DNA from: a phage
Sequence record: PZ386965.1
DNA length: 64,000 bases
Strand: one strand, 5' to 3'
Below are positions 9,566 to 53,677 of the stretch, one piece after another (position 1 is the first letter of the stretch; the number at the start of each line of letters is the position of its first letter). Made by a program: the position numbers and the translations under genes. Below the pieces are notes generated by a model. The model saw only the letters and a list, made by a program, of their open reading frames with translations, was not told the origin of the DNA and did not search any database.

Positions 9566-11381
9566 AGGACATCCATTCTTTACGAAGTTCTGAATCATCA
9601 CCCATCAACATTTCAAAGAGTTCTTTCCAATTTTCAGGAAGTTTAACTACGTCGTACACAGGGTTCTGAATCATTTCACGATATTCTGACTTTTCAAGGG
9701 AGCCTAATCCCTTGATGTATCGAATACTATGCTTAGGCAGTGTATCTTTAACTTCTTCATACTCAGCTACAGTATAAAACCATTTTTGAGTTTTGCCAAT
9801 TTGTGCAATAATTACAGGTGTTTTAACAAAGCGAATACGTCCTTGTTCAAACAATTCAGGCCAATTACTAAAGAAAGCAAGCAAAGCCGGATAGATACTT
9901 CCAAGACCGTCATGATCTGCATCAGTCATAATTGCAATATTACGATAGTTCGTATTCTCTGCCTTTTCACCAAGAATAAGACCTGTGATAGCACAGATAT
10001 CAAAGAGCTCTTTGTTCTTCATCATATCAGCATATGACATACCCCAGCTATTCATCACCTTACCACGTAACGGGAATCCGCCGTGTAGTTCACGGTCACG
10101 AACATCAATGAGATAACCAATTGCAGAATCACCTTCTGTTAAGAACAATGTCGTATCTGCATCTTTACCACATTGGTTAGCTTTAATATGCTTATGAACC
10201 TTAGCTTTAGTTGCCTTTTTAGCTGCTTTAGTTTCTGCAGCCTTTTCTGCCGCCAATTTACGAGCTAATGCTGCTTCAACAATAGGCATAATCAAGGCTT
10301 CGTTTTTAAGAAGTGCCTGAGCAATTTTCTTAGCATCTAATTGGATATGATTACGAATATCGCCATACGTTGACGTTAAACGTTCTTTAGTCTGAGAATC
10401 AAAACGCATGTTGCTCATGTCTCTAATAAACATCAACATTGTGAGGCATTCTTTAACACGAGCTTTAGTGACTTCAATACCCTTATATTTCTTTTTAATA
10501 CCCGGCAAAAGATGTTCGCAGATATCGTCCATTACACATTCAACATGATGTCCACCATTTTTAGTATGGATGTTATTCACATAAGTTAAATGACGGAAGC
10601 CATCTGGTGATGTTGTGAATGCTATAGAGACTTTATCATTTTCTTGAATGATGTTATCTTCACCAAATTGTTTAGCAAATCGTTTAAAATTACCATCAAC
10701 CTTTTTACCGTTAAATGTGAACTTGATATCAGGATAAACGACTGCCAATGTTTGAAGTCGGTCTAAAGTAATATCTAAATAAATTTGAGATAAATTATGC
10801 TCTTCAAATGAAGTGAAATCAGGAGTGAAGATTACTTTAGTGCCTTTACCTTTAGATTTCTTAGAAGACCATGATTTGTTTTCCATTCCGTTTGAACAGT
10901 TAACAGTGATTTCATTTTCGCCATCTGACGTAATGCCTGTAAACAACGTAGAGAAGATATTAGTTAAACTACTCCCTACACCGTTCATACCACCGGTCTT
11001 GCGTTCAGAGTCATCACCAAAGTTACCACCAGCCTTTGGAATAGTCCAGGCTGCTACAGGCCCAGGAATTTGTTCACCTGTTTGGTCGGTAACTAAACCT
11101 TGAGGAATACCACGTCCGTTATCTTCTACAGAAACTTGATTATTTTTAATTTGCACATCAATTTTATTTGCAAACTTAAATGATGTACGAATAGCTTCAT
11201 CAACCGAGTTGTCAATAATCTCATCGATTAATTTAACCAGGCCAGGAACATATTCAACTTGTTGATATTTACCAAACAAAAAACGCTCATGTGCTTCTTT
11301 GGCCGAAGAACCAATATACATACCACTACGTTTCTTAATATGTTCTACATCTGACAATACCTTAATTTCATTTTTAATCAT
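9564..11381 (-). CDS. 39: DNA topoisomerase II large subunit (GyrB-like), continuous 39+60-type
   Basis: 605 aa single ORF; GHKL ATPase and TOPRIM motifs. Confidence 0.9.
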   Translation of the reverse strand: MIKNEIKVLSDVEHIKKRSGMYIGSSAKEAHERFLFGKYQQVEYVPGLVKLIDEIIDNSVDEAIRTSFKFANKIDVQIKNNQVSVEDNGRGIPQGLVTDQTGEQIPGPVAAWTIPKAGGNFGDDSERKTGGMNGVGSSLTNIFSTLFTGITSDGENEITVNCSNGMENKSWSSKKSKGKGTKVIFTPDFTSFEEHNLSQIYLDITLDRLQTLAVVYPDIKFTFNGKKVDGNFKRFAKQFGEDNIIQENDKVSIAFTTSPDGFRHLTYVNNIHTKNGGHHVECVMDDICEHLLPGIKKKYKGIEVTKARVKECLTMLMFIRDMSNMRFDSQTKERLTSTYGDIRNHIQLDAKKIAQALLKNEALIMPIVEAALARKLAAEKAAETKAAKKATKAKVHKHIKANQCGKDADTTLFLTEGDSAIGYLIDVRDRELHGGFPLRGKVMNSWGMSYADMMKNKELFDICAITGLILGEKAENTNYRNIAIMTDADHDGLGSIYPALLAFFSNWPELFEQGRIRFVKTPVIIAQIGKTQKWFYTVAEYEEVKDTLPKHSIRYIKGLGSLEKSEYREMIQNPVYDVVKLPENWKELFEMLMGDDSELRKEWMS

Positions 11382-11421
11382 GTTGTCTCCTCGTTATGAA
11401 GGTATTCTATCATCCGAAATC

Positions 11422-11446
11422 TAAAGCAAAAAGGGCCGAAGCCCTT
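11422..11446 (-). terminator. intrinsic terminator
   Basis: AAGGGC-ttcg-GCCCTT hairpin plus TTTTTGCTTT. Confidence 0.6.
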
Positions 11447-11891
11447 ATTTAAATTTAATTTTCTGAAGTGCATCAATTGCAGCCAAACGCCCTTGTTCAC
11501 TTTTAACTGTAATGACCACATCGCCTGATACGATCACCGAACCATCAACAAATTCTATAGAGCCTTTTTTGAAATCGACAGCTGTATCTGGTTCCGGAAC
11601 TTCTTCAAAGAATTTAAATTCTGCACCGTAAATCAGAATATCACCTTGCATACTATGAATAGTTCGGCCATAATCGCCTACGGCTTCTACAGCAATCACT
11701 GAAACACCATAGCCAATCATCTCTTCCACAATAAAATCTTTGGACAATAAAGTAGTATGCAGATTAGTATTAAGACGTTTACCAGTCGTATTAAGAATTC
11801 TCAAGAAATTATCTTCCTGTCCTTTGATAATACGATATTTCTTACCAACTTCAAAACCTTTAAAACCTTTAAAAGCCGTATTAAAAGCCAT
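11445..11891 (-). CDS. hypothetical protein, 148 aa
   Basis: ORF followed by terminator hairpin. Confidence 0.55.
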   Translation of the reverse strand: MAFNTAFKGFKGFEVGKKYRIIKGQEDNFLRILNTTGKRLNTNLHTTLLSKDFIVEEMIGYGVSVIAVEAVGDYGRTIHSMQGDILIYGAEFKFFEEVPEPDTAVDFKKGSIEFVDGSVIVSGDVVITVKSEQGRLAAIDALQKIKFK

Positions 11892-11893
11892 AA

Positions 11894-12073
11894 TTAACCC
11901 TTCTTAAGTAAGTCGTAAAAACCACCATTCACATGTTTAGGAGCAGAAACCCGACGAGTAGACAGACGATGACATTCAGGGCAAACATCGTTTTCTCGTT
12001 CAGAAATCCTTTTAATTTTTTCATATTCATGGCCACAATCTTCAGATTGACATTTATAGTCGTATAACGGCAT
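11894..12073 (-). CDS. zinc-ribbon protein (FmdB-like), 59 aa
   Basis: MPLYDYKC..CGH...CPECH two CxxC pairs. Confidence 0.5.
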   Translation of the reverse strand: MPLYDYKCQSEDCGHEYEKIKRISERENDVCPECHRLSTRRVSAPKHVNGGFYDLLKKG

Positions 12074-21180: not shown

Positions 21181-21717
21181 TTAGTAACCATTATCCTGAC
21201 GTTCAAAGTTGTGTTGGTTTTTCAAGTAGTAAAGTTTAAAGATTTCTTCAGCCGAAAGACCTAGACCTTGGAACATATTTAGAACGAAATGCAGAATATC
21301 AATCATTTCAAATTTAATTTCAAGCTGGTCTTCAGGAGACAGTTCATCGATACGACGATTTCGATATTCAGCATGTTGTGCTTTCCATGGCTTCCATACA
21401 CTGCTGGCGGCTTTTTCACCATTGCTCATACCACCAAGTGAAGTCAACAGTTCACGGAATTCATCATCAATATAATCTTTCTGATTACGCAGCCAATCAA
21501 CAACATCACCAGCAGTGGCCAATTCATCAGGATGTTTGTTATGTTCAGGCTTGTCATTTGCCAGACGAACCTGTAAAGATTTCTGCATATCAAGCATTAC
21601 CTGCAGTGGGTCTTTATCTTCGTGAATCAGAGCATTAAAATAAGCTTCTTCTGCTTTATCAACACCAGAAATAAGTTGTGAACATTCATTAAAGTGTGCC
21701 ATTATTTTTCCTTTCAA
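21181..21717 (-). CDS. 56: dCTP pyrophosphatase (MazG-like dCTPase)
   Basis: 178 aa (T4 gp56 171 aa); position between soc and 61. Confidence 0.75.
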   Translation of the reverse strand: MKGKIMAHFNECSQLISGVDKAEEAYFNALIHEDKDPLQVMLDMQKSLQVRLANDKPEHNKHPDELATAGDVVDWLRNQKDYIDDEFRELLTSLGGMSNGEKAASSVWKPWKAQHAEYRNRRIDELSPEDQLEIKFEMIDILHFVLNMFQGLGLSAEEIFKLYYLKNQHNFERQDNGY

Positions 21718-29731: not shown

Positions 29732-30280
29732 TTAACGAGCCCATTTGATGATTTCTGTAATCAAACCATTACGTTCGCTTGCATTAAATCCTATAACTTT
29801 GTTAGCACCATCATGATTAAGTAATTGATATGTTTGGATTTTGTTATGAATTGCAAACTCTTCAAAATGTGAAATGACTGTATTAAAACCGAATGAAGAC
29901 AAAGTAATAAGGTCGTCTTCAAAACTTTCAGTCATTTCGTTACGTGTTAAAATAATTGTGAACACATCATGGTTTTGGCAAAGACGAACATAGTCCTGTT
30001 CATAAACGTCAAGAATCGAGTCCGCATCTTGTCGAATACGTCCATAAACCCAGTTACTAATATATCCACGGTCTAACAGATAAATCTTAGTAGGGTCTAA
30101 ATAATTCAACATCGTTTCGAAACAACCAACTTCATTTCGAGACTTAACATCGAAACGTCCATCAACTGTTCGTTTAGGGAAATCAATCTTTACATATCTT
30201 TCACTAATTTCCATTATGTCATTAATGAAAGTTGTTTTACCGGCATTATCCGGGCCATCTACTAAAATAATTTTAGCCAT
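29732..30280 (-). CDS. P-loop kinase, thymidylate/nucleotide-kinase-like
   Basis: 182 aa; Walker A VDGPDNAGKTT and LLDRGY (DRY-like) motif; occupies T4 segA/beta-gt interval. Confidence 0.55.
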   Translation of the reverse strand: MAKIILVDGPDNAGKTTFINDIMEISERYVKIDFPKRTVDGRFDVKSRNEVGCFETMLNYLDPTKIYLLDRGYISNWVYGRIRQDADSILDVYEQDYVRLCQNHDVFTIILTRNEMTESFEDDLITLSSFGFNTVISHFEEFAIHNKIQTYQLLNHDGANKVIGFNASERNGLITEIIKWAR

Positions 30281-30281
30281 T

Positions 30282-31181
30282 TTATTCCTCGATTACGACA
30301 TCTTCGTATTTAGGTATATTATACGGCGAAGAAATTAAAGCATTAAAGTAGATGAACTCACCAAGACCTGGATGGAATACTTCTTCAGGATTTTCGAAAT
30401 ATTGAATTTTCGGACGTCCTTTAAGAATTTGATAGTACTCAGTTTTAGTTGGTTTAAAAATTCGAATCAGCGCTTCTTCAGGATACTTATTTCTGTCGAA
30501 GCTATTATTTGGATCGGTTATATAAAGCGCTTGGCCTAATTGAATTGCACATTCAACCACTTGTTCAAAACGATAGCACGGGTCACTAATTCGAAATGGA
30601 TGAAAAATACCATCTAGATGAATAGGAGCCAAATCACCTACAAGACGCTGCATGATGGAAGGACGTATAACTTTCTGCGTTACGATAATCTTATTACCAT
30701 CTGCACCTGCGTTAACCAGCACTTCTTTTTGACGTTCATTCAACACAGTAGTTTGAAGTGAACGATTAACAGACAACATGTCGGTTTTTAAGAATTCATC
30801 AATATAAAAACGTGGTTTATTAGGGTCTGCAGTGATATTGAAATTGAATTCCACATCAAAAGCGCCGCCATAACCAGTGATATCTGTGATTAGAAAATCA
30901 CAATCATAATAATCAATTAATGAATCAACCACAAATTCATTTTCAGTCCAGAAATATTTACGAGTGTTATACGCGTTATCTTTATACCATAATGGAACAA
31001 ACTTAAATTCTGGGAAAAGACGTTCACATTCTTTAATATCAGATGCATTACGTGGATATGTAATCACATCACCCGGATTAGCACGGTGCAAATGAAGTTG
31101 GAAGTTGCCATCCTTAAGGATAGCATACTGTCCAGTTTCATAAGACCGCATACTCAAGATTGGTACGCGGAAAATAGCCAT
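30282..31181 (-). CDS. hypothetical protein, 299 aa (beta-gt locus)
   Basis: ORF immediately downstream of gene 42 where T4 has beta-gt; no motif recognised. Confidence 0.55.
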   Translation of the reverse strand: MAIFRVPILSMRSYETGQYAILKDGNFQLHLHRANPGDVITYPRNASDIKECERLFPEFKFVPLWYKDNAYNTRKYFWTENEFVVDSLIDYYDCDFLITDITGYGGAFDVEFNFNITADPNKPRFYIDEFLKTDMLSVNRSLQTTVLNERQKEVLVNAGADGNKIIVTQKVIRPSIMQRLVGDLAPIHLDGIFHPFRISDPCYRFEQVVECAIQLGQALYITDPNNSFDRNKYPEEALIRIFKPTKTEYYQILKGRPKIQYFENPEEVFHPGLGEFIYFNALISSPYNIPKYEDVVIEE

Positions 31182-31897
31182 TAGTCAAGGAATCCTTTAA
31201 CATAATCAAAATCACGTTCAAACACATGGGCACTTACCATGGTATGAGTATAATCACCAACTTCTACACCGCATTCGTTAGCGATATAATGAAGTAATTT
31301 TCCTTGGAGATAAAAATCCAACTGCATAACAACAGCACAGTTCTGAGAACGCATATGACAGTGGGTATAAAGCTTACCATCACGAATATAATAAGTTACT
31401 GAGTCAGTACATGGATATTCAAGTGTTTCGTCCGAATCAAGCAAAGCCTGATCAGAACTTTCTAGAATTTGGAACACAACTCTTCGAGAGTTAGGTTTTT
31501 CTTTAAGTTCTTTTAGAAGAGTTGGTAATTGGGCCGCAATGCGAGGACCATAGAAAGTGTTGAAGTTCGCCGGCAAAACATCTGATTTTGGTTTAGAAAT
31601 AAATTTAGCGACATTAGGATATGCCTTAAACGCTTCTTCTGCGTTGGTACCACCAGAAATCATAAACTTCCAGAAGTCTTCGGCATATTCATAAGAGATG
31701 CGGTTAATACGTGGGTCGGTCATTTTGAATGATGATGGAGTGTCAACAACTACTGTCATAGACCCAATTTCATTACAACGTCCAATACGAGAATCAGTTA
31801 CGAATTCCGGGTTTTCTAAAATTTCACGATTGACTGCTTTAAACGCGGTTTGAAAATCTGCGGCTTTGATATATTTCATTGTGTTATGTTTTCCCAT
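31181..31897 (-). CDS. 42: dCMP hydroxymethylase (thymidylate-synthase fold)
   Basis: 238 aa; CTDSVTYYIRD...MRSQN block aligns with T4 gp42 CTNTVQYLIRD...MRSND. Confidence 0.8.
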   Translation of the reverse strand: MGKHNTMKYIKAADFQTAFKAVNREILENPEFVTDSRIGRCNEIGSMTVVVDTPSSFKMTDPRINRISYEYAEDFWKFMISGGTNAEEAFKAYPNVAKFISKPKSDVLPANFNTFYGPRIAAQLPTLLKELKEKPNSRRVVFQILESSDQALLDSDETLEYPCTDSVTYYIRDGKLYTHCHMRSQNCAVVMQLDFYLQGKLLHYIANECGVEVGDYTHTMVSAHVFERDFDYVKGFLD

Positions 31898-31939: not shown

Positions 31940-32179
31940 TTATTTGAATTTCTTGACAATGTTGATATAACGTAAAGCTTCAGAATCTATACTTCCAAGA
32001 ACACTATGAAGGAATGCATCAGTGTAGTATTCTAATTGAACAGGTTCTTTAATCACTTTAGCCGCTTTGGTTTCAAACAGGCCCATAAGGGCCTTTTTAA
32101 GAATTTGTTCGTTAGTGTTCAGTTTCATAGTCAAAATCTCTTCGTTAAGTTTATAATTAAAACTTTTTCTAGAAATCAT
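31940..32179 (-). CDS. hypothetical protein, 79 aa
   Basis: ORF at 3' end of sugar cassette. Confidence 0.45.
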   Translation of the reverse strand: MISRKSFNYKLNEEILTMKLNTNEQILKKALMGLFETKAAKVIKEPVQLEYYTDAFLHSVLGSIDSEALRYINIVKKFK

Positions 32180-33345
32180 TCCGGGTACCTCAAAGCGTCA
32201 TCAGAGTTAGTTATATCAATAATAGATATGGAGTTTTCTGCTAACCCGTTTTTAGATAATTGACGTTTATAATACCTTTCACAATATGTACACGTTGACC
32301 CACAGATTTCATTAGCACAATCAAAATCTGGATGTCTGAACCACCTTTTTTCTAAAAAGCCATCTAACAAAGAGGTTTCAATATTTACTGTATGTGAAAA
32401 CTCAGTCTCATTTTCAAGAGTGAAAATAGTCTCTAAAGGCTTCCACAGTTCTAACAAATTACCTTCAAACTTTTCAGAAGCGTATGCTTCAAGAACTTTC
32501 AAAATGTAGTCTGTGCTACCTGTACGTCCTGAAACTTTGAATTGAGTGATACCAATATCATTATAAAGTTTCAAATCTTGAGGACGAACAAAACGAGTTC
32601 TCAACCAGTTAAATGGGTCTGTATCACGAGCTTTAATACAGTGCTGCATTGGATATCCATTTAAGGATTTAGCATCATCAGCGGTAACATCAGTACTATG
32701 GAAAATATAGCAAGAGTCACGATAGCTACAATGTGTTGTATACCCTTTACCAGCATTAGAACAGAACTCATTTACAAGAACTTCAAATATTATATTGTTC
32801 TTATTGCAAAACTCTGCTGCACGCTTCAGGAAAGAAACTGAACGGTTCTTATGAATTCCACAGCAGACCTTTTTGATATTATATTGGTCATGCAAGTATT
32901 TGATTTGAGTTACGGCATCAACATGTAGAATTGTTGAAACTTCAATCTCAATATCTTTATTGACTTCACGAACAATTTCCATAACAACAGGGTTAGCGAT
33001 AGTAATACGCCATACGCCTATTGACCAAAGATACTGAACATAATCCTGAATAGCTTTCTTCTTCCACTCAACTAGTTCTCTTTTTGAACCAGGATTTATC
33101 GTGTTGAGTGTATAGTTAAAGCAAATACCTAATTCATTACAACGTTTAACATAGTCTTCTAACATCTTTTTGTCAACGTCAGGAAGCCTAAAATCAGGTC
33201 TGGCTGCTACAAAAGCCATTTCTCTTGTAGAACCATATACTTCGTTTATCAAGCTATTAGGATAGGTTTTATTGAGCTCTACGATTTTATCAAGAAGAGC
33301 TAAATCAAAATTCGTTCCGATTTTAAAAGTATTCATTTTTTGCAT
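32176..33345 (-). CDS. Cys-rich enzyme of unknown family (possible Fe-S/metal site)
   Basis: 389 aa; C-terminal C-x4-C-x3-C-x2-C cluster (CANEICGSTCTYC); inside sugar cassette. Confidence 0.55.
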   Translation of the reverse strand: MQKMNTFKIGTNFDLALLDKIVELNKTYPNSLINEVYGSTREMAFVAARPDFRLPDVDKKMLEDYVKRCNELGICFNYTLNTINPGSKRELVEWKKKAIQDYVQYLWSIGVWRITIANPVVMEIVREVNKDIEIEVSTILHVDAVTQIKYLHDQYNIKKVCCGIHKNRSVSFLKRAAEFCNKNNIIFEVLVNEFCSNAGKGYTTHCSYRDSCYIFHSTDVTADDAKSLNGYPMQHCIKARDTDPFNWLRTRFVRPQDLKLYNDIGITQFKVSGRTGSTDYILKVLEAYASEKFEGNLLELWKPLETIFTLENETEFSHTVNIETSLLDGFLEKRWFRHPDFDCANEICGSTCTYCERYYKRQLSKNGLAENSISIIDITNSDDALRYPE

Positions 33346-33391: not shown

Positions 33392-33793
33392 TTATAGATT
33401 CGGTTTATATGATTTAAATGTTTCGAATTCGCCTTTATTCATAAGAGTTTTGAATTCGTCAGGACGCATAGCTTTGTCGTCGATAATCCAATCATATACT
33501 GGTTTATGTGTTAGCAAATTATGGTACTTCAAACCAATGTTTTCCAAGTTCTGAATCAGACTTGGGAGAATGTCAATTGCTATACGACCAGGACCTACTG
33601 ACTTCATACCACGAGCAGTGTAAAGCGTTATGGTATGCCCTGCATCATACAGGGCATTAATGGCAGACACCATTTCGACGTCCGGTTTGAAGTTCACGTA
33701 ATCACGATTGTTATTCCACTCTGTTATACAATCATCGACATCAAAACAAAGATTAAGCATGTTTTCTACACGGTGCATTAGATTCGTTCCCAT
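33392..33793 (-). CDS. HAD-superfamily phosphatase (cap-less, KdsC-like)
   Basis: 133 aa; motif I FDVDDCIT, motif II LYTARG, motif III/IV K..DWIIDD. Confidence 0.6.
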   Translation of the reverse strand: MGTNLMHRVENMLNLCFDVDDCITEWNNNRDYVNFKPDVEMVSAINALYDAGHTITLYTARGMKSVGPGRIAIDILPSLIQNLENIGLKYHNLLTHKPVYDWIIDDKAMRPDEFKTLMNKGEFETFKSYKPNL

Positions 33794-35463
33794 TGATGAG
33801 TGATATCGCCACCGATTGGACGATAGGAAACACCAGTTTCTTTATCAGTTAGTACCCATTTACCAGGATTTTTTGTAATCAGAGTAGCCATTACAGGTTC
33901 TGCTACGTCATAACTAATAGAGCCATCTTGAAGTACACGACCCATGTTACGTAATTGCTTAGTCAGAAGTTCCATACCTTTATAATATGCGGCTACCGCT
34001 TTAAGTGGATTATTCTTGAAATAACCACCTAATGCAATCCAGATAATTGCTACTGCCAAATGATGATACTCGTTAAACGAACTCATCTTTCCATATTTGT
34101 AAACTAATGGATTGATGTTAATAGTCACATTACAAGTTGTTTCATCAATAGTAAACTGTCCCCAGGTCGGATTAGCATTGAATTCATCATAACCTGAAAC
34201 AGCATAAAGCACTTTAGCTTCATCGTACAATTTTGGCCCGTAAATCTTGGTTTCACCAAAATATCCACGAGGGTCGATAAACTTGACTTCGCCGTTATCA
34301 GTAATCATAGTATTACTGAAGTTCGGGTCACCATGAATAACAGAGTACTGTCCCTGAGAACGGTTATGATAACGAATAAGATGTTCTAAAGCTTGTTTCA
34401 ACATTGGCTTCAGACGTCCAATCTTAGTGTAGTTCACGTGTGTGATTTTACCAAATGAATCAATCAATGGCTGAATGCTTTCACAACGATCAATAACTTT
34501 CGTATAGAACTCTTTAGTGAAATCACGGCGAACAGTTTCAGGACTTACAAAATAAGTGTCCGTGCTGAATTTCAGTGCATCTAAAATTGCATCAACAATT
34601 TGTGGACGAGCAAGACTTGATTTGGATTTAATATATTCAAATGCCGGCTTACCTTTAATACGTTCCATTTCAAAATTATTTTCATTTACCGAAACTAACT
34701 GAGGAACTGAATCTGATTTCACTTTCAAGTACCATGAAATCTCATCTTTTTGAAGAGCTCGACCTTGTTCGGTTAACGCGAATTTAGTTACAGTTTCTTC
34801 GCCAATTTCAACTGCATTAAAACTACGATTAAGTTCACGAACTTCATGAGCTTTTTCAAGTTTAGGCATATCACCTAAATCAATTAGATTCATAAGCTCT
34901 GATTTATTGAATGCACTCCCGTAAAGGAATTCTACAAAATCACGTCCTTTGCAGTATTCGTGAATTTCCTCATCAGTAGAACCCATGTAGAATTCCCAGT
35001 CTTTGAACTGATAAATTCCTACAACATTACCGCCTGTTGAACCTACGTTAGTGATATTTTCACCATCGAAATTATATCGACATTCATCACCCTTAACATA
35101 GATTGCGTTAACATTCCAAGACCATGAACCAAAATCAGGAATAATATCACACCAGTTAACAATTACGTTATGTCCATCTAAATCTTTGTATAATTTAGCA
35201 AGAGCATAAGCAGAACCATACGCTTCATCAACTGTACGAATAGTCACATTGAACCCTTCTTGCTCACAATAAGCTCGAACAGTTTCAGCAAATTTTGAAT
35301 GAACTACTACAATAATTTCATCTGCGCCAAGGTCAGAATAAATTGTATACAAATTGCTCAGAATAGTGTCTTGTTTATAGTTAACAAGCACCTTAGGAAT
35401 ATGATGCGTTATTGGATACAAACGAGTTGCCAGTCCAGCACCAAGAATAACAGCTTTTTTCAT
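33778..35463 (-). CDS. bifunctional sugar-1-phosphate nucleotidylyltransferase / APH-type anomeric sugar kinase
   Basis: 561 aa; N-terminal AVILGAGLATRLYPIT..PKVLV (RmlA-like NTP-transferase); C-terminal HGDPNFSN...FIDPRG (Brenner kinase motif). Confidence 0.7.
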   Translation of the reverse strand: MKKAVILGAGLATRLYPITHHIPKVLVNYKQDTILSNLYTIYSDLGADEIIVVVHSKFAETVRAYCEQEGFNVTIRTVDEAYGSAYALAKLYKDLDGHNVIVNWCDIIPDFGSWSWNVNAIYVKGDECRYNFDGENITNVGSTGGNVVGIYQFKDWEFYMGSTDEEIHEYCKGRDFVEFLYGSAFNKSELMNLIDLGDMPKLEKAHEVRELNRSFNAVEIGEETVTKFALTEQGRALQKDEISWYLKVKSDSVPQLVSVNENNFEMERIKGKPAFEYIKSKSSLARPQIVDAILDALKFSTDTYFVSPETVRRDFTKEFYTKVIDRCESIQPLIDSFGKITHVNYTKIGRLKPMLKQALEHLIRYHNRSQGQYSVIHGDPNFSNTMITDNGEVKFIDPRGYFGETKIYGPKLYDEAKVLYAVSGYDEFNANPTWGQFTIDETTCNVTININPLVYKYGKMSSFNEYHHLAVAIIWIALGGYFKNNPLKAVAAYYKGMELLTKQLRNMGRVLQDGSISYDVAEPVMATLITKNPGKWVLTDKETGVSYRPIGGDITHQWERI

Positions 35464-35504: not shown

Positions 35505-35648
35505 CTAGTTAAAGCATTCATACTTTGCTTGTAGTCCAATCATAATCCATCCGATTATAAGAGTCGGAATCATTACTGGAGCCGTTAAGCTCCAGTAGAT
35601 AGTCATGACAAGCATCAATAGTAAAAGTCCTATTGTTATTGCTTTCAT
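35505..35648 (-). CDS. small membrane protein, 47 aa
   Basis: ATGA overlap with SIS gene stop; hydrophobic. Confidence 0.35.
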   Translation of the reverse strand: MKAITIGLLLLMLVMTIYWSLTAPVMIPTLIIGWIMIGLQAKYECFN

Positions 35649-36280
35649 TGCTCGCCTCGTAACATGGCACCTAGTGCACCGCCTGGATGGAACTTAAGGA
35701 AGTCATTAGAGGTAAATCCACGTTCAGACGAAAGGTTGATAGCGAACGTATCGATAAGCGCTAACAACAATGTAGTGGACATTGTCGGAGCTAAAGAGTT
35801 CTCGTCAACTTCTACCGCGATACCGGTACAGAACGTATAATCAAAAAGAGCTTCGTATTCTTGCGGAATGTCCGGGTTACAATGCAACAGAATCTGTTTA
35901 ACCTGAGGACGAATCATACGAAGATGTTTAGCAACACCTATCATTTCTTCAGTTTTACCAGAACGACTAATATGAATCAACACGTCATTAGGCGCAATGA
36001 ATCCTGCATCACCGTGAGAATAATGCCCAGTGTTCAAGTACATACTTGGGATACCGAGTGAAGCAAATGTCTCGGAAGCTTTAGTTGCAATATTAGCATT
36101 CTTACCAACACCTGTAATAATTACTCGGCTTTCATAATTACTAAGACCAGGGCGTCGAAGAGTTTCTAGAATAGCATTATAACGAGCAGGGTTTTGACTA
36201 ATTACTTTAGCCATAGCGGCCAAAGAAGAAGCTTGTTTTATGATTGCGTCAATAGCGATATTAATAGGAGTAGTTTTCAT
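35645..36280 (-). CDS. SIS-domain sugar-phosphate isomerase, arabinose-5-phosphate isomerase-like (KdsD/GutQ N-domain)
   Basis: 211 aa; ITGVGKNANIATKASETFASLG, ISRSGKTEE, LAPTMSTT, HPGGALG blocks match KdsD SIS domain. Confidence 0.75.
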   Translation of the reverse strand: MKTTPINIAIDAIIKQASSLAAMAKVISQNPARYNAILETLRRPGLSNYESRVIITGVGKNANIATKASETFASLGIPSMYLNTGHYSHGDAGFIAPNDVLIHISRSGKTEEMIGVAKHLRMIRPQVKQILLHCNPDIPQEYEALFDYTFCTGIAVEVDENSLAPTMSTTLLLALIDTFAINLSSERGFTSNDFLKFHPGGALGAMLRGEQ

Positions 36281-51392: not shown

Positions 51393-51863
51393 TTAATCAT
51401 GTTTCCACACCCCATCGGTATTTGACCAAAGTCGCTGATTATCTGATCCTCGCCACAACTTTTTGGTCGGAAGATTTTTCTCATACTTACCATCAATAAT
51501 AACATCAACATATTTAAGCATTTCTAGTTGTTTAATATCTTCAAACTTATATCCTGTCCACAACCAAATGCTTTTACTGGGATAAAGATTTTTAATAGTT
51601 TGAACCACAGAGTGAATCACATCTCTGTTATCAGGATAGAGAGGGTCACCTCCGGTTATAGTCAATCCTTCTATATAATCATTATTCAAACATTCAATTA
51701 ATTGTTCTAGTGTCTCTCCGGTGAATGGAGCACCATTTCTAGCGTTCCATGTTGATTTATTATAACACCCTTCGCATTTATGCAAACAACCTGTAACGAA
51801 AAGAACGACCCTGCAACCAGGGCCATTAACAAAATCGCAAGGATAAAATCTATCATAATTCAT
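51393..51863 (-). CDS. nrdG: anaerobic ribonucleotide reductase activating protein (radical SAM)
   Basis: 156 aa; CxxxCxxC (CLHKCEGC) near N-terminus. Confidence 0.9.
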   Translation of the reverse strand: MNYDRFYPCDFVNGPGCRVVLFVTGCLHKCEGCYNKSTWNARNGAPFTGETLEQLIECLNNDYIEGLTITGGDPLYPDNRDVIHSVVQTIKNLYPSKSIWLWTGYKFEDIKQLEMLKYVDVIIDGKYEKNLPTKKLWRGSDNQRLWSNTDGVWKHD

Positions 51864-53677
51864 TGGTGTTTAACCCTATGCATGATTTCTTTATTTTTAC
51901 CGAGATTAAATCCGCGTTCGTTCGGATTTCCAAGATAACCGCATGTTCTTCTTATGGTGTTCATCTTTTTAGGATCAGTTTCTCCACAAACTGAACAAAC
52001 AAATCCATTTTCAGTAGGAGTCATTTCATGAGTACTTCCGCATGTAAAACATTTATCCACTGGCATATTAACACCAAAATAATCTAAATGTTGCGCAGCA
52101 TAATCCCAGACAGCCTCAAGTCCCTTTAAATTGTTTTTCATATCTGGAAGTTCAACATAAGAAATGTGACCACCTGTCGCAATGAAATGATACGGCGCTT
52201 CACGAGAAATCTTTTCAAACGGAGTAATATTTTCTTCTACTGAAACATGGAAACTATTAGTGTACCAGCCTTTATCGGTAACATCTTTTACGCTTCCATA
52301 TTTTTCAGTATCAAGTTTACAGAAGCGATAACAAAGGTTTTCAGCAGGAGTAGAATATAAACTAAAAGCAAATCCAGTTCTTTCGGTCCACTGTTTAAGA
52401 TGAGCATTCATTTTAGTTAAAATTTCTTGTCCAATATCACGACCAACAAGAATATTCAATTCATGAATACCAATGTATCCTAAAGACACTGAACTTCTGC
52501 CGTTTTTAAATAACTCAATTATATCGTCATCAGGTTTAAGACGAACCCCGAATGCACCTTCTTGGTAAAGAATAGGAGCAACAGTCGCTTTAACTCCTTT
52601 TAAAGAACTAATTCTACACATCAAGGCTTCAAAACACAGATCCATTCGTTCATTAAATAGCTCAACAAATTTCTGTTCATTGAACTGTGTTCCAATATAA
52701 GAATCTAACGCGATACGAGGAAGATTCAGTGTTACAACACCAAGATTATTACGTCCATCAAGAATTTCATTACCAGTCGAATCTTTCCATACGCTCAAGA
52801 AACTACGGCAACCCATTGGAGAAACAGGAACTGAAGAACCGGTAATAGCTTTATTATTCTTAACAGAAATAATGTCAGGATACATTCTTTTGCTTGCACA
52901 TTCTAACGCAAGTTGTTTAATATCATAGTTTGGATCATCTTTATAAAGATTAACACCTTCTTCAACAAACATAACAAGTTTAGGAAAAATAGGAGTTATT
53001 CCATCACGACCAAGACCTTTAATGCGGTTTTTAAGAATTGCCTTCTGAATCATTCGTTCAGTCCAGTCGGTTCCTGTTCCAAATGTTATAGTAACAAAAG
53101 GAGTTTGCCCGTTTGAACTAAAAAGAGTATTTACTTCATATTCATAAGCTTGGAATGCATCGTATACGTCTTTTTCCGTTTTAGATTGAGCATAATTCAA
53201 CGCATCAGCGATTTGCCATTTTTCTGCATCCTCAATATGTTTTGCATAGGTGCGTTTAACATAGGGAGAAAGTACTTTATCTACATTAGCAAAAGTCGTT
53301 CCGCCGTATTGATGGGAAGCAACTTGTGCAGTAATTTGTGCCATAATTGCAGTAGCAACACCAATCGATTTAGGCGTTTCGATTTGAGCATTGCCTAATT
53401 TAAAACCATTCTCAAGCATCCCCTTTAAATCGACTAAACAGCAATTAGTAAACGGAAGAGCAGGAGAATAATCAATATCATGCATGTGGATAATTCCACT
53501 TTCATGCGCATTCATAATAAAAGACGGGACCGTATTTTTGGCAATGTGCTTAGACACAATACCAGCCATAAGGTCCCGTTGAGTTGGAAAAACACGAGAA
53601 TCTTTATTAGCATTCTCGTTCAAAAGATCTTTATTAGTTTTACGAATTAATCCTTCAATTTCTTTTTCAATTTTCAT
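51860..53677 (-). CDS. nrdD: anaerobic ribonucleoside-triphosphate reductase
   Basis: 605 aa; C-terminal Zn site CFTCGS..CSVCG and glycyl-radical RTCGY motif. Confidence 0.9.
   Translation of the reverse strand: MKIEKEIEGLIRKTNKDLLNENANKDSRVFPTQRDLMAGIVSKHIAKNTVPSFIMNAHESGIIHMHDIDYSPALPFTNCCLVDLKGMLENGFKLGNAQIETPKSIGVATAIMAQITAQVASHQYGGTTFANVDKVLSPYVKRTYAKHIEDAEKWQIADALNYAQSKTEKDVYDAFQAYEYEVNTLFSSNGQTPFVTITFGTGTDWTERMIQKAILKNRIKGLGRDGITPIFPKLVMFVEEGVNLYKDDPNYDIKQLALECASKRMYPDIISVKNNKAITGSSVPVSPMGCRSFLSVWKDSTGNEILDGRNNLGVVTLNLPRIALDSYIGTQFNEQKFVELFNERMDLCFEALMCRISSLKGVKATVAPILYQEGAFGVRLKPDDDIIELFKNGRSSVSLGYIGIHELNILVGRDIGQEILTKMNAHLKQWTERTGFAFSLYSTPAENLCYRFCKLDTEKYGSVKDVTDKGWYTNSFHVSVEENITPFEKISREAPYHFIATGGHISYVELPDMKNNLKGLEAVWDYAAQHLDYFGVNMPVDKCFTCGSTHEMTPTENGFVCSVCGETDPKKMNTIRRTCGYLGNPNERGFNLGKNKEIMHRVKHQ

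Follow-up and report, generated by a model that had tools for sequence, protein, structure and literature searches.

The DNA of phage RB69 carries arabinosylated 5-hydroxycytosine (5hoC) (Lee et al., NAR 2026, PMC13326640). According to the same study, 5-hydroxy-dCMP is made by gp48, a flavin-binding ThyA homologue that requires reduced flavin and takes its oxygen from O2, as seen by 18O2 labelling, and UDP-arabinofuranose is supplied by an isomerase, AfhE and AfhF. Another gene, RB69p050, appears there in Table 1 only, as a 'sugar or heterocycle reductase' with a structural match to 5D88; the Discussion names two RNA pyrimidine-hydroxylation pathways, not tied to RB69p050, and U32, prephenate, chorismate and anoxia are not mentioned. 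Here we analyzed the homologue of RB69p050 in a 64,000-nucleotide stretch of phage DNA (sequence record PZ386965.1, the window). The gene product belongs to the U32 family of O2-independent iron-sulfur hydroxylases (RlhA, TrhP, UbiU/UbiV) and is soluble, with a single domain; its sequence and gene neighborhoods make it, on balance, probable that it is an O2-independent, prephenate-dependent C5 hydroxylase of cytosine nucleotides that serves 5hoC DNA hypermodification as the anoxic counterpart of the ThyA-type enzyme.

The closest described systems are the U32 proteins of Escherichia coli. RlhA (YdcP) is the 5-hydroxycytidine synthase for C2501 of 23S rRNA; its reaction takes place at C5 of cytosine, as we propose for the phage protein, and needs prephenate as well as Fe-S biogenesis. 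TrhP (YegQ) is a prephenate-dependent hydroxylase that forms 5-hydroxyuridine at position 34 of tRNA (ho5U34), and UbiU/UbiV are O2-independent ubiquinone hydroxylases for which a [4Fe-4S] cluster on four Cys has been demonstrated (C169/C176/C193/C232 in UbiU). Canonical U32 hydroxylases bind this cluster through a CX6CX15-16CX3/4C pattern, or with a CX38C spacing in UbiU. Genetic data show that RlhA requires prephenate, and for UbiU/UbiV prephenate has been demonstrated to donate the oxygen (a 2024 PNAS paper for the latter). E. coli pairs O2-dependent with O2-independent enzymes in two cases, TrhO with TrhP and UbiI,H,F with UbiU,V, and the TrhO/TrhP pair is a precedent for two enzymes carrying out the same C5 pyrimidine hydroxylation.

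The gene and its main elements in the window are as follows.

32176 to 33345, minus strand: U32-family gene, homologue of RB69 ORF050c (NP_861740), 389 aa from the first ATG
32479 to 33057, minus strand: U32 TIM-barrel core, residues 97-289, the Pfam PF01136 match, including the K270-x-x-G-R274 hallmark and E193
32638 to 32763, minus strand: central Cys set C195-x10-C206-x5-C212-x23-C236, with H205 and H216, invariant in 121 homologues and placed by alignment with RlhA, TrhP and UbiU
32281 to 32319, minus strand: C-terminal CX4CX3CX2C cluster (C343, C348, C352, C355), unchanged in all of 121 homologues; 116 of 132 remote members also have it

A preliminary description of the window, made from the letters alone, had pointed to a Cys-rich 389-aa open reading frame (ORF) inside the sugar cassette, and this is what the gene is: it encodes 13 Cys and lies within that cassette. 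The protein shares 99.2% of its residues with RB69 ORF050c and 99.5% with the homologue in HY126. Its true start is probably M4 (ATG at 33336), where the RefSeq relatives begin, three codons after the first ATG; a GAG lies 9 nt upstream of this codon.

Membership in the U32 family was seen at several levels. Pfam PF01136 (Peptidase_U32) matches residues 97-289 with 42.2 bits against a cut-off of 22.4 (E 7.4e-11), and precomputed PF01136 matches are listed for nearly all homologues. The AlphaFold2 model of the phage protein (pLDDT 93, pTM 0.92) has the U32 TIM-barrel fold. A profile of the phage family matched a profile of E. coli RlhA, TrhP, UbiU and UbiV with 97% probability (E 1e-10), and when the single paralogues were compared by hhalign, RlhA was the best match (88%, E 3e-6). 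Against the E. coli proteins, only the profile-profile comparison gave a clear match: the family profile hit single E. coli U32 sequences weakly, and pairwise BLASTP of the phage protein against the same four E. coli proteins gave nothing significant. phmmer found no match among PDB sequences, a BFVD search returned the same gene only, and the weak UbiU match in NCBIfam reached 18 bits against an equivalog cut-off of 440. The faint, unverified resemblance to U32 hydroxylases mentioned in the preliminary description is thus confirmed, and the profile and AlphaFold checks it proposed lead to a U32 barrel, the fold of an Fe-S hydroxylase family. As another candidate identity, a ThyA-type 5-hydroxy-dCMP synthase was rejected for this gene, since that enzyme has a different fold and its E143/N169/D177 signature belongs to the gene at 31181-31897.

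Residue-level alignment places the conserved features of the phage protein on those of its characterized relatives. C206 and C212 align with C169/C176 of RlhA, C170/C177 of TrhP and C169/C176 of UbiU; C169 and C176 are essential in RlhA, and in UbiU C169/C176 are cluster ligands. E193, in an invariant 'NEF', aligns with E161 in the 'IEF' of RlhA, which mutant data show to be nearly essential, and in the strand motif K-I/V-x-G-R the phage 'FKVSGRTGS' aligns with 'LKIEGRTKS'. K270 and R274 are conserved in 100% of 132 remote members. The phage protein and RlhA therefore have in common, besides the U32 barrel, the C...C pair, a 'CYIxH' motif and the glutamate. RlhA also has a separate essential Cys cluster near its C terminus (C572/C580/C611/C614), to which the CX4CX3CX2C cluster of the phage protein would correspond. 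The two differ in that RlhA has 653 aa in two U32-related halves, carries the canonical CX3C pair and acts on pre-50S rRNA, whereas the phage protein has 389 aa in a single domain, lacks this pair and presumably acts on a deoxynucleotide. TrhP, likewise of the U32 family, differs by its tRNA uridine substrate, its CX6CX15CX3C pattern and a C-terminal domain that is absent from the phage protein. UbiU/UbiV form a heterodimer with a lipid substrate and the accessory protein UbiT, and the phage protein falls far below the UbiU equivalog cut-off; their functional unit holds two clusters, the same number that we propose for the single phage polypeptide. Mk0906 of Methanopyrus kandleri (PDB 5D88), a 'collagenase-like' U32 protein, shows 11-14% identity, is 247 residues long and lacks the C-terminal Cys appendix.

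The 13 Cys include two clusters. The central set contains HCSYRDSCYIFH (residues 205-216), and the C-terminal cluster is CANEICGSTCTYC (residues 343-355, C343-x4-C348-x3-C352-x2-C355). Among 121 homologues, down to 46% identity, C161, C195, C206, C212, C236, C343, C348, C352, C355 and H216 are invariant and C180 is conserved in 98%. Among 132 remote full-length representatives (24-49% identity), C195 is kept in 98% and C236 in 100%, at least four Cys fall in the 190-240 segment in 110, and the C-terminal four-Cys cluster is retained in 116. Across the whole family, no Cys are better conserved than C195 and C236, which together with C206 and C212 give the family-specific motif CX10CX5CX23C. In 100,000 shuffles of the composition of the protein, four Cys within 13 residues had p = 0.048 and CX3CX2C had p = 0.011; the C-terminal motif is only modestly unlikely in one sequence of such composition, and both clusters are meaningful because they are conserved across the 121 homologues and the 132 remote representatives. 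We propose the central set as a [4Fe-4S] site and the C-terminal CX4CX3CX2C as a possible second metal or Fe-S site. The preliminary description had placed the C-terminal motif at the protein end: the motif itself holds, but 34 residues follow it. The upstream Cys/His stretch that it listed holds conserved residues as well, but it missed the central Cys set, which is the one that aligns with the canonical U32 Fe-S ligands.

The gene has the lowest nonsynonymous divergence (dN) in the cassette, 0.09-0.15, with a ratio to synonymous divergence (dN/dS) of at most about 0.08 and saturated synonymous sites; it is the most constrained cassette gene and is under purifying selection. In Escherichia phage OLB35 (Mosigvirus, MH992122), the annotation splits the gene into two ORFs, one of 269 and one of 108 aa (BFVD A0A3G3MCS7 and A0A3G3MCT7). 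A frameshift, a natural knockout or an error in sequencing may lie behind this; if the split is real, the isolate would be a ready-made mutant.

The C-terminal motif had been read as a radical-SAM-like site, and the name 'Peptidase U32' in GenBank suggests a genuine peptidase or collagenase. We regard both identities as hardly credible. CX3CX2C is indeed present, but at residues 348-355, outside a radical-SAM core, and the C-terminal CX4CX3CX2C forms a small appendix to a U32 TIM barrel rather than part of a radical-SAM partial barrel; Radical_SAM Pfam models gave no match to the phage protein at E up to 0.1, so the radical-SAM assignment was rejected. As for proteolysis, every characterized E. 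coli U32 member (RlhA, TrhP, UbiU, UbiV) is implicated in O2-independent hydroxylation instead.

From the alignments and gene neighborhoods we infer a substrate, an oxygen donor, Fe-S binding and an anaerobic role for the phage enzyme. It would hydroxylate C5 of a cytosine nucleotide, most likely converting dCMP to 5-hydroxy-dCMP; DNA cytosine or dUMP would be less likely substrates. Prephenate would give the oxygen atom, leaving phenylpyruvate and CO2, and two electrons would leave via the central Cys-ligated [4Fe-4S] cluster (C195/C206/C212/C236) and the C-terminal four-Cys cluster. The 5-hydroxy-dCMP could then be phosphorylated by phage kinases, incorporated into DNA and arabinosylated by the neighboring glycosyltransferase, on the same route as the product of gp48. 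In RB69-like phages, the U32 protein would be the anoxic counterpart of the O2- and flavin-dependent ThyA-type 5-hydroxy-dCMP synthase encoded two genes downstream. The ThyA-type enzyme of RB69 (gp48) and HY126, for which the same product is proposed, has a thymidylate synthase fold, uses flavin and O2 and has been characterized experimentally, whereas the U32 protein is known from sequence. An anoxic hydroxylase would be needed: the known enzyme depends on O2 as its oxygen source, yet this phage has nrdD and nrdG, which serve growth under anoxia.

Chorismate mutase (CM) makes prephenate, and CM genes accompany the U32 gene in many phages. By a CM-domain hidden Markov model (HMM), a CM gene of 79-107 aa lies between the U32 and ThyA genes in 13 of 15 T4-like loci, and a stand-alone CM gene lies directly downstream of U32 in 8 metagenomic loci. 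Eight representatives pass the gathering score of Pfam CM_2, with 38-68 bits against a cut-off of 27. A fusion of 3-deoxy-D-arabino-heptulosonate 7-phosphate synthase (DAHPS) with CM stands beside U32 in six further loci, five of them distinct (PF00793 E 4e-25; PF01817 E 5e-20), within about 0.6 kb (L036, L038/39, L041, L050, L062). CM or DAHPS-CM genes adjoin U32 in 28 of about 68 loci. The genes are located as follows.

L013-L024 and L026, about 11130-11900 in each locus: CM gene of the T4-like loci
L036 8411-9433, L039 7302-8357, L041 8332-9387, L050 11085-12203, L062 8940-9968: DAHPS-CM fusions
L002 11145-11891, L025 9384-10130: DAHPS-only gene, immediately downstream of U32

The DAHPS-only gene could alternatively encode an enzyme like 3-deoxy-D-manno-octulosonate 8-phosphate (Kdo8P) synthase that uses arabinose-5-phosphate. 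The closest match of the DAHPS-CM fusion in a deposited phage is the human-fecal 'Bacteriophage sp.' contig MT837090 (44% identity).

Among 50,697 phage records, a CM of this kind was found in 51 only. All 51 are T4-like phages whose host groups are those of the U32 carriers, and in every record with annotated neighbors the CM gene lies between U32 (as 'peptidase') and a ThyA-type gene. None of the 51 records comes from Acinetobacter, Mosigvirus or Dhakavirus. The hosts of the CM-bearing T4-like phages are Klebsiella, Serratia (including LC53 and 92A1), Yersinia, Enterobacter, Edwardsiella, Erwinia, Pectobacterium, Providencia, Morganella, Shewanella (Thanatos) and E. coli (EcS1). Some depositors had already labeled the gene 'chorismate mutase', and we found no paper that links the phage CM gene to U32. 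We take the adjacency as an indirect sign that the phage U32 enzyme may depend on prephenate. As a rough estimate, some 62,000 cytosines per genome and a burst of 100-200 would call for about 10^7 prephenate molecules per infected cell, a demand that would account for the CM or DAHPS-CM genes acquired by many phages.

Outside the T4-like phages, U32 stands in the place of the ThyA-type hydroxylase. We compared 15 T4-like loci and about 45 others, the non-T4 loci being dereplicated to 41. A 5hoC-type ThyA gene lies beside U32 in the 15 T4-like loci only; none was found within 10 kb of U32 in the roughly 45 non-T4 loci by tblastn, a ThyA HMM or phmmer with E. coli ThyA. Two ThyA-like genes near U32 (L027, L072) carry the ordinary D169/N177 dTMP signature, as opposed to E143/N169/D177 in the window gene. 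A 43,970-bp contig, fully reconstructed by walking, has no ThyA-family gene anywhere, and in it a GT299-type glycosyltransferase is followed directly by U32. The GT299 family, to which the glycosyltransferase of the window belongs, is the commonest U32 neighbor in non-T4 phages (25 of the 41 dereplicated loci, directly adjacent in 9). An AfhE-like gene neighbors U32 in 15 of these loci, arabinose-5-phosphate isomerase in 11, a Tmk-like kinase in 9 and dCMP deaminase in 6. Many U32 loci contain no arabinose genes at all. In some U32 loci, precomputed Pfam matches are to dUTPase/DCD/MazG, a T4 alpha-GT-like (TAGT) protein and UDP-galactopyranose mutase (GLF).

This replacement bears on the possibility that the U32 protein is no hydroxylase itself but a redox partner that supplies reduced flavin or electrons to the ThyA-type flavoenzyme. 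The requirement of gp48 for reduced flavin would suit such a role, as would the Fe-S clusters that the U32 protein probably has; with U32 present in dozens of phage lineages that lack a ThyA-type enzyme, and with a CM linkage that would then have no rationale, we consider it highly improbable. The neighborhoods also speak to the substrate. The same U32/prephenate chemistry might be applied to cytosines in DNA after replication, or to dCTP or dCDP, rather than to dCMP: RlhA and TrhP work on polymeric RNA, and sequence gives no substrate identity. U32 sits, however, with a pre-replicative toolkit (dNMP/Tmk-like kinases, dUTPase/DCD/MazG, dCMP deaminase) that mirrors the logic of T4 gp56/gp42/gp1, and the protein is a compact single domain with no recognizable nucleic-acid-binding extension. 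A substrate other than dCMP is therefore judged unlikely.

Several recurrent genes in these loci are recorded here as observations. In L005 (7777-16179) and L033 (whole contig IMGVR_UViG_3300045988_074298), the order is Gly_transf_sug, a kinase-like gene, a GT299-like gene, U32, a TAGT-like glycosyltransferase, dUTPase/DCD and UDP-galactopyranose mutase; this module resembles the galactofuranosyl/glucosyl-5hoC cassette of Rhizobium phage RL38J1 with U32 replacing the ThyA-type enzyme. L059, L065, L066, L067 and L068, the last being a Phocaeicola faecalis isolate scaffold, have U32 together with a guanylate-kinase and methyltransferase fusion (435 aa), a GP88-family protein and a 267-aa protein instead of GT299 or sugar genes, and a base modification of the 5-hydroxy to 5-methoxy type is conceivable there. 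A 204-aa family without a Pfam match co-occurs with isomerase and AfhE-like genes in 14 non-T4 loci (e.g., L050 14062-14676) and may be a functional analogue of the haloacid dehalogenase (HAD) phosphatase AfhF. A RimK-like ATP-grasp protein of about 500 aa recurs in six U32 loci, and the contexts of the remote members P0139 and P0137 are phage-like and otherwise uninformative.

With sequences clustered at 50% identity, the U32 profile retrieved 1,716 cluster representatives at E <= 1e-3 and, at the stricter E <= 1e-30, 491. Sequenced phages account for 222 records with the protein, all from T4-like phages of Enterobacterales or Shewanella. All 222 are carriers of the 5hoC-type cassette and none is a T4-like phage that uses hydroxymethylcytosine (hmC). 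Metagenomic relatives of about 50-58% identity lie on other phage-like contigs, one of 466 kb, and also in bins assigned to Erysipelotrichales, Oscillospiraceae, Romboutsia, Tannerella, Gastranaerophilaceae and others, as well as on the Phocaeicola faecalis scaffold. Among the matches listed, U32 carriers were thus found only as phages of facultative anaerobes (Enterobacterales, Shewanella) and as contigs binned with anaerobic taxa.

T4-like phages encode tRNAs, and the closest characterized relatives of the protein, with RlhA as the best hhalign match, are RNA hydroxylases. These two facts would favor an enzyme like TrhP or RlhA that modifies tRNA (ho5U34) or rRNA (ho5C2501) of host or phage and tunes translation, unrelated to DNA modification. 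Against it, many unrelated phage lineages have U32 inside the DNA-modification cassette, beside 5hoC-type DNA glycosyltransferases and nucleotide kinases; the restriction to 5hoC-type carriers in 222 of 222 phage matches, with none in hmC-using relatives, and the lack of the C-terminal domains of TrhP and RlhA point the same way. We therefore hold an RNA substrate to be quite unlikely. As for the family as a whole, we see an evenly balanced case for the broader proposal that single-domain U32 Fe-S enzymes form a large family in phages that had gone unrecognized (about 500 clusters at 50% identity, E < 1e-30), one that makes 5-hydroxypyrimidine deoxynucleotides without O2 from prephenate, often with a phage CM or DAHPS-CM supply, and would be the sole hydroxylase in phages of anaerobes and an anoxic twin in RB69-like coliphages.

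Phages that lack U32 show which branch of the cassette can do without it. The ThyA-type hydroxylase is found in 374 phage records, including 57 from phages of Acinetobacter and 20 from phages of Rhizobium, both strict aerobes. For the 222 U32 records, ten organism groups were listed, down to one with 3 records, and these two genera do not appear among them. The one Acinetobacter cassette inspected, that of Lazarusvirus fHyAci03 (L074), lacks both U32 and CM; its HAD gene is followed directly by ThyA, and the isomerase and two extra glycosyltransferases are present. The cassette of E. coli Dhakavirus IME281 (L073) lacks both U32 and the arabinose-5-phosphate isomerase, for which this phage presumably uses host KdsD or GutQ. 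Since Lazarusvirus and Dhakavirus lack U32, it is accessory and dispensable for the sugar branch. This matters for the idea that the protein belongs to that branch, for example as a reductase or epimerase acting on arabinose or an NDP-sugar intermediate. Its gene does have the HAD phosphatase on one side and the base-modifying genes on the other, published annotations agree with a sugar role, and isomerase and AfhE-like genes co-occur with it in 11-15 of the 41 non-T4 loci. DLP3 and other Lazarusviruses nevertheless make arabinosyl-5hoC without U32, the Dhakavirus cassette is intact without it, UDP-arabinofuranose synthesis is assigned to AfhE and AfhF, many U32 loci have no arabinose genes or have other sugar genes (GLF, TAGT), and no U32 member is known to act on sugars, which together make a sugar-branch enzyme very unlikely. 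The preliminary description had left open whether an Fe-S or redox enzyme would modify the sugar or the base; comparative genomics favors the base, and the arabinose genes that Lazarusvirus and Dhakavirus keep without U32 tell against the sugar.

Several points weigh against an anoxic, prephenate-dependent cytosine hydroxylase. Two of the four canonical U32 Cys positions are kept in place (C206 and C212, with a CX5C spacing); the canonical CX3/4C pair is not at its aligned place, and C195 and C236 are assumed to replace it. The window itself, a Mosigvirus, has no CM gene, and the same is true of Mosigvirus generally and of Marfavirus; in these phages prephenate would have to come from host PheA and TyrA. 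Nor is U32 needed universally: some coliphages with the ThyA-type enzyme (Dhakavirus IME281) lack it. The correlation of U32 with hosts is phylogenetically confounded because it rests on few clades, the anaerobic origin of the metagenomic loci derives from the taxonomy of metagenome-assembled genomes and bins rather than from sample metadata, and most of these loci were viewed over about 10 kb on each side only. As of the 2024 PNAS paper, direct hydroxylase activity had been reconstituted in vitro for no U32 protein, because the known substrates are ribosome precursors, tRNA and a membrane lipid. Finally, no assigned function for the gene was found in the accessible literature; He et al. 2026 (Nat Chem Biol) and Mahler et al. 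2025 (Cell Host Microbe) were outside this coverage and may hold relevant data.

Within that literature, the gene is annotated as 'peptidase' in GenBank and under 'UDP-arabinose biosynthesis' in BASEL phages. It is not discussed in the RB69 arabinosylation paper (Thomas et al. 2018) or in the Durham Collection paper, the authors of the Thanatos paper write that they have no hypothesis on where the hydroxyl group comes from, and data on single genes of LC53 or Bas46 are not given in a phage Tn-seq preprint. Searches linking U32 with phage arabinose, hydroxymethylcytosine, 5-hydroxycytosine or chorismate mutase returned nothing relevant. The gene and its annotation are known; its most likely function, in DNA hypermodification, would be a new role for the U32 family.

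The window is from a T4-like Mosigvirus of the RB69 group; its cassette shares about 98% identity with that of Escherichia phages p000y and p000v. On the minus strand, gp43 DNA polymerase is followed by arabinose-5-phosphate isomerase, the AfhE-like kinase/pyrophosphorylase, the HAD phosphatase and the U32 gene, and then by a 79-aa ORF, the ThyA homologue, the glycosyltransferase, the Tmk-like kinase and UvsX. The other features are as follows.

35645 to 36280, minus strand: arabinose-5-phosphate isomerase (SIS domain), by homology
33778 to 35463, minus strand: bifunctional kinase / UDP-arabinose pyrophosphorylase (AfhE-like), by homology
33392 to 33793, minus strand: HAD phosphatase (AfhF-like), by homology
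31940 to 32179, minus strand: 79-aa ORF whose ATG overlaps the U32 stop (ATGA, overlap 32176-32179)
31181 to 31897, minus strand: ThyA-type 5-hydroxy-dCMP synthase (RB69 gp48 homologue), Pfam Thymidylat_synt, E143/N169/D177, O2 and flavin dependence per Lee et al. 2026
30282 to 31181, minus strand: DNA arabinosyltransferase 1 (RB69 gp46:47 homologue, here 'GT299'), by homology
29732 to 30280, minus strand: thymidylate-kinase-like nucleotide kinase (RB69 gp45 homologue), by homology
51393 to 53677, minus strand: nrdG and nrdD, anaerobic ribonucleotide reductase activase and large subunit (51393-51863 and 51860-53677)
21183 to 21702, minus strand: gp56 dCTPase

The presence of nrdD/nrdG and gp56 would fit a phage that is adapted to replicate under anoxia and to exclude dCTP. 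The ATGA overlap suggests translational coupling of the U32 gene with the 79-aa ORF. The latter belongs to PHROG 8601, a family with conserved YY-DAF-HS-G and R-IN-K motifs that occurs in Mosigvirus and in L013, L020, L022 and L026, there too start/stop-coupled to U32. The 79-aa ORF was considered as a cryptic chorismate mutase and turned out not to be one.

If the proposed function is true, it would explain how phages with an O2-requiring cytosine hydroxylase can make fully modified, restriction-resistant DNA in the anoxic gut, where coliphages replicate and phage therapy is applied, and hypermodification of the glycosyl-5-hydroxycytosine type would extend to many phages of strict anaerobes, with U32, chorismate mutase and a GT299-type glycosyltransferase as a marker gene set for such phages. 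It would also provide a rationale for chorismate mutase and DAHP synthase as auxiliary metabolic genes of phages. Within the U32 family, the phage protein would be the first member to act on a small, soluble substrate, and a soluble 389-aa enzyme acting on dCMP and prephenate would make U32 hydroxylase chemistry directly testable.

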